The notes under the pieces: generated by a model | Database searches by the model: none | Told to the model about the DNA's origin: nothing | Seen by the model: only the letters and a program-made list of their open reading frames with translations | Program-made: the position numbers and the translations under genes | Shown here: in pieces, positions 28,981 to 61,924 of the stretch | Numbering within the stretch: position 1 is the first letter of the stretch | Layout: every line of letters begins with the position of its first letter | Source: Eledone cirrhosa | Lineage: Eukaryota | Length of the DNA: 64,000 nt | Assembly (NCBI GenBank): GCA_964016885.1 | Contig: OZ024741.1 | Location: 171,182,001 to 171,246,000, forward strand | Reading direction: 5' to 3'

Positions 28981-29076
28981 TAGAAGAGCTTCTACAGGAT
29001 AGAACTGTTTGATTCGTGAGAAATCATCAGGATTTCTCAAGAATGAAACACTTCTAGTCCTGTAGAAGCTCTTCTA
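28981..29076. repeat. Fold-back palindrome centred on a hammerhead core
   Basis: TAGAAGAGCTTCTACAGGA...GAGAAATC / GATTTCTC...TCCTGTAGAAGCTCTTCTA; centre TCATCAG (CTGATGA on minus strand). Confidence 0.8.
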
Positions 29077-29197
29077 CTTTAAAACATTTATACTCTGCTA
29101 TGTATTGAGTAACTTACTGGTTAGCCAGGAATAAATTATATATATATATATATATATATATATATATATATATATATATATATATATATATATATAT

Positions 29198-29545
29198 GAA
29201 ACAAAAATTTAAATTATGAAGACCAATACAATCCATATTGAGTATGTTAAATTGCCAAAATAACAAAAGAATCTTACCTTGGAAAATTTAACGATCCCAA
29301 ATATTTTCGGATTTAAAACCCATTATCAAGAGAGTAACCCTATAAGAGACTTAAAAATCGATCGAATAGACATGCTTGTATGGGAGCAGATTTAATCTGG
29401 TCCAATAGGCTTACTCCTTTGATAATGGTTTTTAAACCATTTTTTGGATCGTTACATTTGCTAATGTAAGATTCTTTTGTTATCTTGGAAATTTAACATT
29501 CTCCATAAGCATTGTGTTGGTTTTCCTAATTTAAATGTGTGTTTC
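29198..29545. repeat. Diverged fold-back element with a U3-A8 hammerhead (29295-29333, minus)
   Basis: Arms ATAACAAAAGAATCTTAC / GTAAGATTCTTTTGTTAT; minus strand TCTC-TTGATAA-TGG..CC-GAAA-ATAT-TT-GGGA. Confidence 0.7.
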
Positions 29546-29724
29546 CTATTAAACAATGCTTCAAGCAAGCTACAAAATTCTATTATACATACACACACAC
29601 ACACATATATATATATACATATATATAGTGGTGGAACACTGGAAGGTAATATCCGTAGTGGTAGAGCACTCAGTCCATGGGACGTGTTAGGTAGAAGTGG
29701 TTACACAACAGGTAGTTCACCATA

Positions 29725-29764
29725 CCGAGAACAATTGTTTCACCTTAGCGGATCCTCAGCTCGG
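29725..29764 (-). ncRNA. Minimal type I hammerhead in the inverted PLE terminus
   Basis: CCGAG-CTGAGGA-T-CC-GCTAA-GG-T-GAAA-CAATTG-TT-CTCGG. Confidence 0.8.
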
Positions 29765-30017
29765 AATGGGCATGGTTATAGGAACAGGAAGGACAACCGT
29801 ACGAACGCGCATGCGCAGAAACCCGGTCACTTCACACAGGCAATACTAGACTGCGTGCGAGAGGTGTAAGGGAGATAACTGCGAAAGTCCGAAAAGTTTT
29901 TAGGTTGAAAATAAAATTTCAAAGAATCAGTCCGGAGCCTTGTAGTTATGCATTAGGTGTTTGGAGACGTGTGGACAACGTGTGAAAAATTCACTTCTCG
30001 TGTTTAGGCAATAACTA

Positions 30018-57642: not shown

Positions 57643-57674
57643 ATATATATATGTGAATGATAAATGGCGAGCTG

Positions 57675-58478
57675 TATACATATATGTATACAGACGTACA
57701 GTAGTATGTATATATATATATATACATACATGCACACATATATATATGTACGTATGGGTTTACCGAACATTTATTATAATTCGGGGTGTTTGTAAACAAA
57801 CACCCCGAATTAAGCCGTACAGTGTTCGGCAACCATCGTTGCCCTTTTGTTCAACACGGACAAAGGAACGATGAACTGTTTCAAGCTTATTAGCTATCGT
57901 CAGCATCGTATACCTTCATGTCAGATGATTGAATGTTTGAAAGTATATACTTTCCTTATGCATATTAACGGGTGAGCAGCCTAAACAAGCAAACCGAACA
58001 TTATAATAAATGTTCGGTAAACCCATACGTACATATATATATATATATATATGTCTGTGCATGTATGTATATATATATACATACTACTGTACGTCTGTAT
58101 ACATATATGTATGTACGTATGCATACTTATATTTAAGTATAAGCCGTACTAAGAGTGAGAAATAAAATTTCGTTTCATTCTTTTCCATATATCGTATTCG
58201 GTACGCCCGGCCGACTAACTCACTCGATATGCAAATTAGGCTGCTCAGCCGTTTATATGCATAAGGAATGTATATACTTTCAAACGTTCAATCATCTGAC
58301 AGGAAGGTATACGATGCTGACGATAGCTAATAAGCTTGAAACTAGTCCATCGTTCCTTTATAATAAATGTTCGGTAAACCCATACGTACATATATATATA
58401 TATGTGTGTGCATGTATGTATATATATACATACAACTGTACGTCTGTATACATATATATATGTACGTATACATACTTA
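57675..58478. mobile_element. Family A fold-back whose right arm is longer than one unit; hammerheads at 57869-57908 (minus) and 58312-58352 (plus, GUC)
   Basis: Inversion at ~57985; TAATAAATGTTCGGTAAACCCATACG occurs twice in the right arm. Confidence 0.85.
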
Positions 58479-58559
58479 TATATATATATATATATATATA
58501 TATATATATATATATATATATATATATATATATATATATATATATATATATATATATAT

Positions 58560-59768
58560 ATGAGAGACGTAAAATAAGAAAATTATAAAATTAACTTACT
58601 TACTAAAATATCACTTCCAACTAATTAGTTTCTGGAATGGAGTAAATATATTTTCCGAAGAAGATACAGAGAAACATTCCGTCGTCAGGGAAGACTATTC
58701 TCATCTAAGTTTCCAGGCAAAGCGAGGACTCTGGAAACTTATTAAAAAATAATTCAGTGGATAGGAAATAGCAAAGCGTGGACTGAATTCCTAGCCATTG
58801 AGAAAATCACTGCCTCTACGTCTGTGGCTAATTCAAAAAGAATCAATCACGTGGCATCGAGGTCAATCAGTGGAAAGTGGTTTGCTAATAAGACAGCGGC
58901 CTGCCTACTACCATAGCAGCAGTCATGGCCAATTTTGCTCGACAAATAATTTGGAGATAATTATAAAGAATTAATATCTAGTAACATATATATACATACA
59001 GATGCATATCAATGCTAGCAAATATATAGGTTTTGTCTTAGTAACATTGTGGTTCAATGCATGGGGTTGCAGAACAATAATATGAGAGACGTAAAATAAG
59101 AAAATTATAAAATTAACTTACTTACTAAAATATCACTTCCAACTAATTAGTTTCTGGAATGGAGTAAATATATTTTCCGAAGAAGATATGGAGAAACATT
59201 CCGTCGTCAGGGAAGACTATTCTCATCTAAGTTTCCAGACAAAGCGAGGACTCTGGAAACTTATTAAAAAATAATTCAGTGGATAGGAAATAGCAAAGCG
59301 TGGACTGAATTCCTAGCCATTGAGAAAATCACTGCCTCTGCGTCTGTGGCAAATTCAAAAAGAATCAATCACGTGGCATCGAGGTCATGCTGCTATGGTA
59401 GTAGGCAGGCCGCTGTCTTATTAGCAAACCACTTTCCACTGATTGACCTCGATGCCACGTGATTGATTCTTTTTGAATTTGCCACAGACGCAGAGGCAGT
59501 GATTTTCTCAATGGCTAGGAATTCAGTCCACGCTTTGCTATTTCCTATCCACTGAATTATTTTTTAATCAGTTTCCAGAGTCCTCGCTTTGCCTGGAAAC
59601 TTAGATGAGAATTGTCTTCCCTGACGACGGAATATTTCTCCGTATCTTCTTCGGAAAATATATTTACTCCATTCCAGAAACTAATTAGTTGGAAGTGATA
59701 TTTTAGTAAGTAAGTTAATTTTATAATTTTCTTATTTTACGTCTCTCATATTATTGTTTTGCAACCCC
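58560..59768. mobile_element. Family B: head-to-tail units (period 522) followed by an inverted copy from 59388
   Basis: TGAGAGACGTAAAATAAG at 58561 and 59082/59083; inverted copy to 59768; three hammerheads. Confidence 0.9.
59616..59695 (+). ncRNA. Type I hammerhead (family B); minus-strand copies at 58614-58693 and 59136-59215
   Basis: CTTCC-CTGACGA-C-GGAAT..ATTCC-A-GAAA-CTAATTAG-TT-GGAAG. Confidence 0.85.
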
Positions 59769-61626
59769 ATATATATCACGTCCTCTTTTGATTTTGGTCT
59801 GCAGACGTAACTGACCAAGGATTTGTACCTGGAAATTTCTGCTCTAAAGCACAATCTTCCCTTCGGCAGGGTGTTTTGTGGAAGTCTAGTGGCCGCATAT
59901 ACATAACACTCTCACCAATAGACGCATAAACTCCCAATGAACAAATTATGTGTCTCTGTATAACAGTTGATAGTTGGTTCATTTCAGATCAGATAAAAAA
60001 TTAGATTCACATATATATATATCTGAAATTGATTTTAGAAACAATGTAATATTTTCAATGCTAATTATTTTTGTCCTTTTTCTGTTGTTCAAGGTAGGCC
60101 ATCATTACTTCAGACCATTTCTATTAGACGATAAGCGAAAATGTATCCATCCCAACCATATTTGTGTGTGTGTGTGTGTGAGTGAGAAAGAGAAAATTTA
60201 TATGTGTGTGTGAAATATTTTGGGCTGCTGAATTATTGCGTTAGCTTCAGTGAATTCTCACTCATGAATACAGCTGTTTGTGAATTTGGGTGGATTAAAT
60301 ACTGAAATTGAATAAAGAATTAAATTACTAAAGCCTAATACAAGAAAATAAAGTTTTCGTTTGTATATTTATTTTCAAAACGAAAGAGAGAAAACACTGT
60401 TCCCTCTCTTTCACAAAAAGCATTCAAAACAGTCAAGGGAAAATTAGTTTACATGACGTAAATGGTGGTTATGAATGCGACAAAGAGAAACGTGTAGTTA
60501 GCTGTAGACGCACATAGCAGCTCACATACACATAAATATGGCTAGGACATATATATTTCCAGTATCTCCCACATTCTATTATATATATATATATAACAGA
60601 TTAAAGTTTAAGCAAAGAATCGCTGCTTTCACACTTAACGGGATCTTCTGAAACTAACAAAGTCAATCTGTGAACGCAGAAGTGAATATTTCAAAAAACG
60701 TTGCAACCGGAGGAAGAGAGGAAGACGATACTTTGGTTCGTGGAAGCGTTCCCTGGGAAAGAACGGGGAAAAAAACGAATATAATACGTCATTATTTGGA
60801 GCGGCGAAAAACAATTACACGCAAAGACAAAATACATACATATGTATGTATGAATGTATGTATGTATGTATGTATGTATGTATGTATGTATGTATGTATG
60901 TATGTATGTATGTATGTATGTAAAAGGTAAACAGAAATAACAACACAATCGGTACAGTATATGGAAGGAATATATTAGGTTAACGCTTAAAATAGCAGGA
61001 TGCATGCTAATCCTTCATCAGAAGATATAATGAGAAATAAGATAGATTGAGGGGACTGGTGGGTTGGAATTGGAAAAAATGTCTTTAGATAAAAAAATAA
61101 CAGGTCCATTCATGTTGACATCTCTTGGAAAACTGTTGGTGCTGGCGTTTTGTGTATGATTTATTTTTTAGAAAAGTCGATGATGGAGCGCGTCTACCTG
61201 AAATGAAAAAAAAAACGTTTTGTAAAAAGAGCTCTATTTGTGCCCTTGCGTAAGCATGTGTGTGTGTGTGTGTGTGTGTGTGTGTGTGTGTGTGTGTGTG
61301 TTATTATACGTCCGTACGAAGATAAGAAGAAATGTAAGTAAAAGAGCGCGTGTTAATATAAGGGTGTGAAGGGAAAATATAAGGGAGTGAAGGGAAAAGT
61401 AGAGTGAGCATATTTAGTCGGTCTGTATTAGTTGTAAGAGATGTTAATGAGAGAGCGATCTAGCTGTCGAAACGACCGGAGCTCATCCGTCGGGGTCCTG
61501 ACTCTTTTCATATATATATATATATATATATATATATATATATATATATATATATATATATATATTAGAAAGTGAGGTTTTTTTTACAAAATGAAAAATA
61601 ACCGAGGTGTCCTACACGAGTGGAAG

Positions 61627-61924
61627 TATAAAGAAAAAGGGATGAAATCGAAAATGCAACTGAAGTCTTATTTTTTTTAAAAATATATATATTTATTTGG
61701 TTCCTTTACCGGTTTCGCAGTTCTTCTGCTTTTCAAAAGGTGAGTTGAGATGGAGGGTCTGTGGTTTTTCTCACATCTGAGAAAAACCACAGACCCTCCA
61801 TCTCAACTCACCTTTTGAAAAGCAGAAGAACTGCGAAACCGGTAAAGGAACCAAATAAATATATATATTTAAAAAAAAAATAAGACTTCAGTTGCATTTT
61901 CGATTTCATCCCTTTTTCTTTATA
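61627..61924. repeat. Near-perfect fold-back (147-nt arms, 4-nt loop at 61774-61777) with mirror U3-A8 hammerheads
   Basis: Arms symmetric about 61775.5; right end abuts (TA)n. Confidence 0.92.
61811..61848 (+). ncRNA. Minimal hammerhead with compensatory U3-A8 core; mirror at 61703-61740
   Basis: CCTT-TTGAAAA-GCAG-AAGAA-CTGC-GAAA-CCGG-TA-AAGG. Confidence 0.8.

Follow-up and report, generated by a model that had tools for sequence, protein, structure and literature searches.

The stretch of DNA analysed here, which we call the window, is a 64,000-nucleotide segment of the Eledone cirrhosa genome (contig OZ024741.1, positions 171,182,001 to 171,246,000 of the forward strand; assembly GCA_964016885.1), part of a 3.0-Gb animal assembly that is rich in (TA)n. 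Eleven inverted repeats, or fold-backs, associated with hammerhead ribozyme sequences had been noticed in it in a preliminary description; masked self-alignment recovered all of them in place, with arms 77-98% alike. These fold-backs are head-to-head insertions of Penelope-like elements (PLEs) and of non-coding derivatives of these that bear hammerheads. Copies of each family end 3' at one or other of two fixed positions, 35-120 nt apart, and the extension to the farther one, or tail, is found on exactly one arm of nearly every palindrome that we counted. Hammerheads were scored with our own type I descriptor, for which a pass is a score of at least 8 in the outward sense; in the window it gave 12 matches at scores of at least 11, against 0-1 in each of six shuffles. 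The fold-backs and the protein frames within them are listed here, with our locus labels (L) in brackets.

28981..29137: fold-back 28981, short and centred within a hammerhead; arms 28981-29076 (89% identity), probable tail to about 29137 as read from the sequence
29198..29586: fold-back 29198, family J; repeat 29199-29544 (77%), antisense left arm untailed, sense right arm tailed (L280); core with two mismatches, descriptor score 4
29629..31655: fold-back 29693, family H, a 5'-truncated PLE with an inverted pseudo-long terminal repeat (pLTR; L250, L271); arms 29696-30031/31335-31653 (92%), short antisense arm 29629-30031 tailed, long sense arm 30032-31655 tail-less
30015..30911, + strand: truncated reverse transcriptase (RT) frame of the family H element
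30886..31335, + strand: GIY-YIG-like endonuclease (EN) frame of family H, past a frame change, recognised by eye
34436..35219: fold-back 34440, family C (tandem unit of ~550 nt); arms 34439-34703/34899-35174 (88%), tail on the right arm (L100), only the first hammerhead core box
35241..37018: fold-back 35241, a family G PLE; repeat 35245-36958 (97%), arms of ~860 nt with a full hammerhead in both (L220), tail 36963-37018 on the right arm
36097..36471, + strand: C-terminal frame of a GIY-YIG endonuclease (Pfam PF01541) in the right arm of 35241
48211..49653: fold-back 48209, family B; antisense arm of 108 nt untailed, sense arm of 1.3 kb tailed (L070); arms 48215-48322/49507-49614 (98%)
49716..50100: fold-back 49715, family F; repeat 49718-50098 (93%), hammerhead core in both arms (L190), neither arm tailed
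54741..55465: fold-back 54745, family A (443-nt tandem unit, retrozyme-like); repeat at 54834-55312 with arms 91% alike, tail on the right arm (L001)
57675..58380: fold-back 57675, family A; arms 57862-57984/58236-58359 (94%), internal junctions complex
58562..59770: fold-back 59080, family E (tandem unit of ~520 nt); 1.5 antisense units joined to a sense unit (L130), with a repeat at 59061-59770 (93%) and a further antisense unit from 58563; the right side carries only the start of the tail
61566..61921: fold-back 61627, family D; 290-nt palindrome at 61631-61920 (98%) with a ~65-nt tail on the left arm (L161); core with two mismatches, score 3

The left arm had been described as antisense and the right as sense throughout, and on the best evidence for each fold-back none of the 11 faces inward. 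That a hammerhead core by itself orients all of them holds for only part of the set: a full, outward hammerhead is present in five (29693, 35241, 49715, 54745 and 57675), and the other six are oriented through relatives or through degenerate, partial or spacer cores. For 28981 the orientation comes from relatives with an intact ribozyme (18 plus versus 5 minus matches). Fold-back 48209 has no outward core in its arms, where the sole descriptor matches are weak and inward (scores 4 and 1), and its spacer holds a homologue of the 61627 core on the + strand. At 59080 both core boxes are present with helices that do not fit, and the orientation follows from one library copy. Protein frames confirm a sense right arm at 29693 and 35241. 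In the latter, the frame at 36097-36471 matches PF01541 with E=1.6e-4 (22.4 bits, just below the 22.6 cut-off) and has a Cys pair in its core; it lies on the + strand and confirms, independently of the ribozyme, that the right arm is sense. The family H frame at 30015-30911 has RT motifs recognisable by eye and ESM Atlas neighbours at 0.93-0.98, among them RT/HTH_animal clusters, the top cluster being mostly cnidarian (2 records), and it has no Pfam or PDB match; the core of the following frame, inspected by eye, is without the Cys pair, and this frame too has no Pfam match. Family H may belong to the Hydra clade of PLEs, which is marked by a C-terminal EN lacking CCHH and by (TA)n targets. 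As described, (TA)n or another microsatellite lies at or adjoins the outer ends of most of the 11.

Rfam gave no hammerhead match at 54860-55310, nor among the window matches listed (150 of 217); the matches listed were microRNA-like, fell short of their gathering scores and lay on hairpins or microsatellites. When eight ribozyme regions were folded as single strands, no z-score was significant (-1.45 to 0.62), and the helices I and II seen for 36735, 54950 and 61805 lend no statistical support.

The same polarity extends beyond the window. We scanned 99 ten-kb stretches at round coordinates (990 kb in total) for inverted repeats and oriented the pairs with a library anchored on intact hammerheads, collapsing overlaps. 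Among 284 raw inverted pairs, 65 match this library, and 43 of these are outward, 5 inward and 17 ambiguous. Pairs without internal (TA)6 number 38 outward versus 2 inward (p=1.5e-9), and pairs with spacers of at most 60 nt number 27 versus 0. Both inward rows without internal TA were kept in the count, and on reading, one has a variant core on the + strand of its right arm, hence is outward, and the other consists of dispersed repeats 2.1 kb apart. In 27 of these 38 outward pairs, (TA)4 is found beyond each end at a distance of at most 130 nt, where chance would give 18% per side. A complementary count of strand switches, with a library that also took in families with degenerate cores and covers 43 kb of the 990 kb, found 38 direct head-to-head and 0 direct tail-to-tail switches among the oriented matches, so that the orientation is not random; the 38 oriented direct junctions per Mb are a lower bound. 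A scan of the first 390 kb with the descriptor alone was too insensitive to use (7 outward and 2 inward of 104 pairs); of its inward cases, one pairs two different elements (L033) and the other is a genuine tail-to-tail pair with (TA)n in between (L067).

That the arms "always" face outward, as first described, therefore stands for direct joints but not for every neighbouring pair. Thirteen tail-to-tail switches occur within 200 nt, all split by TA or a gap, and the window itself has two same-family tail-to-tail pairs (37426-37602/37906-38079, 69%; 55093-55311/57757-57960, 85%), which look like separate insertions, with (TA)-rich tracts or kilobases between them.

The elements are of several kinds. 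Remains of PLE proteins are found in family G (a GIY-YIG frame) and family H (an RT frame followed by an EN-like frame), and direct or inverted pLTRs with 5' truncation are seen. Families A (~443 nt), C (~550 nt) and E (~520 nt) are non-coding tandem units, of which A forms 443-nt arrays with an intact hammerhead motif, and C and E are tandem with broken cores. The repeats of families B, D, F and J are of other kinds, and their cores are either intact or decayed. The descriptor passes in A, F, G and H, and cores are degenerate or partial in B, C, D, E and J. In A, C, E and G, copies that are tandem or longer continue past both 3' ends, which are therefore internal to the RNA. Most start sites have 2-6 bases in common with (TA)n, and direct matches at insertion ends, present in 18 of 105 cases, are microsatellite sequence.

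A few observations on these families may be recorded here. Families B and D are homologous around the decayed hammerhead (75%; 49424-49500 versus 61705-61846), with unrelated tails, and at L089 (~1620-1780, minus strand) a family D sense copy is joined in tandem to a family B 5' end, a possible template switch between families. Family D also has a T/A homopolymer tract (61670-61700 and 61855-61885; L160-L189) whose total length is mostly 13 and whose T/A boundary shifts, possibly through quasi-palindrome correction. One further family has a hammerhead-like core in which the second position is A for U and the helices are kept; its copies are the following.

L066:5578-5711: copy of the family with A for U in the core
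14146-14205, 28379-28433 and 60596-60655 of the window: further copies

The distribution of tails carries most of our argument. We surveyed nine families (A-H and J; the 28981 family was left out, and 57675 shares family A with 54745) at 30 loci each, viewing 1.5 kb to either side; the loci are the best-scoring of 40 scored candidates per search and not random draws. After exclusion of 28 loci (12 window copies and 16 duplicates), 242 were counted, and 110 of them hold at least one contiguous head-to-head pair, giving 113 pairs. In 110 of the 113, across all nine families, the tail is on exactly one arm; two pairs have none and one has both. The frequency is similar without families D and E (69 of 71), and eight of the nine surveyed elements in the window are one-tailed, the exception being the untailed 49715. 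For this count four script rows were removed and two re-typed after reading the sequence, the removed rows being two false anchors, one TA-interrupted pair without a tail and one two-tailed pair split by another insertion. At the outer ends, (TA)3 is present on both sides in 103 of 111 cases.

These numbers bear directly on how the two arms were primed. The preliminary description proposed priming from an RNA 3' end by each DNA end of a cut in the self-complementary (TA)n. Read as two independent events, possibly on two RNAs, this would give the right polarity and the variable and unequal arm lengths, and both strands are indeed extended in vitro (Frangieh et al. 2024; PMC11167929). A free choice at each end would, however, allow one tail in at most 50% of pairs (p=5e-29), and the arms stop not at an RNA 3' end but at two fixed internal sites 35-120 nt apart, which tandem copies read through. 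The arms, moreover, belong together: all 38 direct head-to-head switches lie within one family (mixed-family joins, 0 of 38), and in family D, which is split 13:13 at a diagnostic site, both arms carry the same allele there in 24 of 24 copies. We therefore think it unlikely that the two ends act independently. Priming from both DNA ends, the other half of the proposal, remains the best reading, the same in vitro work having both strands cut as well as extended (Frangieh et al. 2024).

The reading that we favour, and consider moderately probable, is that a cut in (TA)n leaves two ends, which prime on one and the same RNA at two adjacent internal sites, and that the two cDNAs are joined midway. 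One ribonucleoprotein, possibly a predicted dimer, would hold a single RNA; one DNA end would start at the downstream site and give the tailed arm, the other would start at the upstream site and give the tail-less arm, and each cDNA would stop at random or at the RNA 5' end. The two cDNA 3' ends would then anneal over 0-8 bases and be filled in, and PLE proteins acting in trans would mobilise the non-coding families. We infer that each end keeps to its own site, that both use a single template and that the cDNAs are joined in this way. (TA)n probably helps, because the same 3' sequence is exposed at both ends of the cut and most start sites have bases in common with the repeat.

Fold-back copying explains some of the same observations. 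Here a single cDNA or antisense RNA would fold back and be copied on itself, EN would trim the hairpin at two sites, and later deletions would skew the centres. Such a route directly accounts for shared alleles and same-family arms, and near-perfect symmetry is common (28 of 85 pairs outside family D have spacers under 25 nt, and most D copies are near-symmetric); the tail has been attributed to EN-mediated resolution in the literature (Craig et al. 2021; PMC8557442), and two loci carry inverted flank copies. It does require the tail to be tied to whichever arm served as template, given that a template without the tail cannot yield a tailed copy, and no such tie is seen. Of the 85 non-D pairs, 43 have assignable spacers (those left after these and the 28 short ones are not assignable), and the spacer is on the tailed arm in 23 and on the tail-less arm in 20, with 7 and 13, respectively, in the non-tandem families. 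The tail is thus not linked to the longer arm, which argues against copying of one arm from the other. Inverted copying of flanking DNA is also rare (3 of 105), and both boundaries of the tail have been mapped as RT start sites on a sense template (Frangieh et al. 2024). We regard fold-back copying as a possible but rather doubtful general explanation.

The centres of the palindromes are informative in the same way. Junctions vary among copies in families A, C, E, G, H and J, and B, D and F have recurrent centres; overlaps at the junctions, estimated by BLAST, are roughly 0-8 nt in clear cases. Since junctions differ between copies, the palindromes arise at insertion. Family D has two mirror-image centre forms (15 of 27 copies), which occur in 8 and 7 copies relative to the tail, so that here again the tail keeps to neither side, and each form occurs with both alleles of the diagnostic site. 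Judging from solo copies, these centres are best read as either arm reaching the fixed 5' end of the RNA, with the two joined over two bases. We had also considered folding of family D at a native hairpin and dropped it, because solo copies indicate that the 5' end is fixed. In eight of nine families the arms of one palindrome diverge less than separate insertions do.

The recurrent centres in B, D and F are what would be expected if whole palindromes were amplified from a few palindromic masters, in the manner of miniature inverted-repeat transposable elements (MITEs) or by read-through retrotransposition. Under that explanation, however, the junctions that vary in the other six families have no ready place, the occurrence of both D centre forms with both alleles and on both tail sides would call for many masters, and, unlike a MITE-like fixed unit, these elements have variable interiors and ends unequal by the tail. 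We judge amplification of finished units to be improbable. Still further down in our estimation, and very improbable, are chimeras of sequencing or assembly: the locus-specific junctions do lack confirmation in raw reads, but arms in the window differ by 2-23%, chimeras would neither follow ribozyme orientation nor stop at two element-specific sites, and the layout has been published from other animals. Among assembled contigs of four runs over 28400-35250, none spans a fold-back plus its flanks. Contigs of run X1 contain many different joints between family H arms and those of run X4 one opposite-strand joint in the 28981 family, and both concern the family and not the window locus.

Several points weigh against double priming on one RNA. 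All the genomic evidence comes from end products. Later asymmetric deletions at the centre could also place spacers on either arm, which weakens the 23 versus 20 comparison, and two of the family B "spacers" (L072 and L081) are internal deletions of one arm. Any one of the 28 near-symmetric non-D pairs, and of almost all D pairs, may have arisen by fold-back copying. Restoring the three real exceptions (the interrupted two-tailed case, the TA-interrupted case without a tail, and a pair without a tail across L237/L238) lowers the one-tail count to 110 of 116, and the family E query contained part of the tail. Gene conversion, or the activity of different subfamilies at different periods, could also account for the shared alleles. 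Family D arms differ at the T/A tract in 15 of 23 copies, and in this family divergence within and between copies is equal. L090 (1330-2050) and L248 (1430-2260) have long inverted flank copies that double priming does not explain. Finally, Frangieh et al. report that the start site did not differ between the strands and that primer and start site shared no homology. As a separate observation, the inverted flanks of L248 are identical over 61 nt and are part of another hammerhead element.

Much of the layout described here has precedents, which we cite from the passages available to us. Arkhipova et al. (2013; PMC3846280) called the head-to-head arrangement of EN-containing PLEs "most frequently observed", described junctions that are palindromic and an inverted pLTR, one of the pair, that carries a tail, and proposed self-priming on an antisense template. 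Craig et al. (2021) draw an inverted, 5'-truncated copy with a one-sided tail as typical, note (TA)n targeting, and call the origin of tandem and inverted PLE insertions undefined. The copies studied here resemble the elements of both papers in head-to-head polarity, palindromic junctions, 5' truncation and partial tandems, as well as in the one-sided tail, the hammerhead in the terminal repeat and the (TA)n targets. The polarity is already known for PLEs, and the counts on tails and arms are what our copies add; the passages in question give examples, in which tails per palindrome are uncounted and the relation of tail to arm length is untried. Tails here reach ~120 nt (family E), compared with the 30-40 bp described. 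The same layout is found in rotifers with 8-10-bp target duplications (Arkhipova et al. 2013), which speaks against (TA)n as the cause of the polarity; (TA)n is the preferred target in this genome, not a requirement.

The closest biochemical parallel is the purified Poseidon PLE protein of the green anole (PAc), which cleaves an AT-rich target on both strands, extends the two, and begins reverse transcription at two neighbouring internal sites of the RNA, one on either side of the tail, with a dimer predicted (Frangieh et al. 2024). The extension of two strands, the AT-rich target and the paired start sites around the tail are shared with our elements; the main text of that study leaves inverted insertions unlinked to the reaction and the second-strand steps open. 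Non-LTR retrozymes, short non-coding tandem units with type I hammerheads that our families A, C and E resemble to differing degrees, have been interpreted as non-autonomous derivatives of PLEs (Cervera and de la Pena 2020, PMC7229834; Li et al. 2026, 10.64898/2026.07.22.740005). Retrozymes are further characterised by self-cleavage and a circular RNA intermediate. The units in our families measure 443-550 nt, with broken cores in C and E, and the arrays differ in ending at two PLE-type sites, often head-to-head; the word "inverted" is absent from the available text of PMC7229834. The available passages of a further paper (PMC13282606) make no mention of hammerheads or palindromes. In the literature searched, which was thin on subscription papers, we found no printed statement of a model with one RNA and two sites, and "twin priming" combined with Penelope returned no paper on PLE insertion by title or abstract. 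In L1 twin priming, both ends of the target prime on one RNA and leave an inverted 5' segment with the 3' direction outward, but the position of the second priming site varies and there is little overlap between the two segments. Here, with two sites that are fixed and lie next to each other, the arms overlap almost fully and form palindromes.

The window holds other features outside these elements, as follows.

31884-32025, 34116-34382, 57445-57506, 57524-57641 and 21741-21794: further fold-backs, arms without a hammerhead match
47462-47734, 50424-50728, 52443-53684 and 61977-62653: the remaining fold-backs of this kind
17170-20692, + strand: non-LTR retrotransposon with an 852-aa RT frame (Pfam RVT_1, E=2e-25; zf-RVT) and a 334-aa frame upstream
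20824-25949: decayed copy of the non-LTR retrotransposon
4555-7052, + strand: frames that we take to be remains of a Helitron Rep/PIF1 helicase
3073-3591 (+ strand) and 44209-44772 (- strand): GIY-YIG-like frames resembling the family H endonuclease, no Pfam match
8571-12008, 23255-23470, 39261-41269 and 62696-63020: short dispersed repeat in many copies and both orientations, presumably SINE-like (short interspersed element)

Chance inverted pairs of this last repeat form a background for palindrome scans.

The preliminary description had further suggested that retroposition here is a systematic generator of palindromes. The polarity is indeed systematic, whereas a fold-back was seen within 1.5 kb to either side at only 110 of the 242 family loci, the others being solo or direct tandem copies or having the far arm out of view. 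Many short palindromes in this genome are nonetheless retroelement products, which repeat pipelines could file as MITEs or as microRNA-like hairpins. For PLEs more widely, our counts argue against the published idea of self-priming on an antisense template and turn an open step of PLE insertion into a simple in vitro test. Whether the PLE dimer carries out a coordinated double reaction on one RNA, each subunit committed to a different site so that any two-armed insertion gains exactly one tail, with joining of 3' ends in place of dedicated second-strand priming, seems to us evenly balanced. If it does, palindromes would be the normal product of PLE and retrozyme mobility, and this mobility would be a major source of inverted repeats in such genomes.

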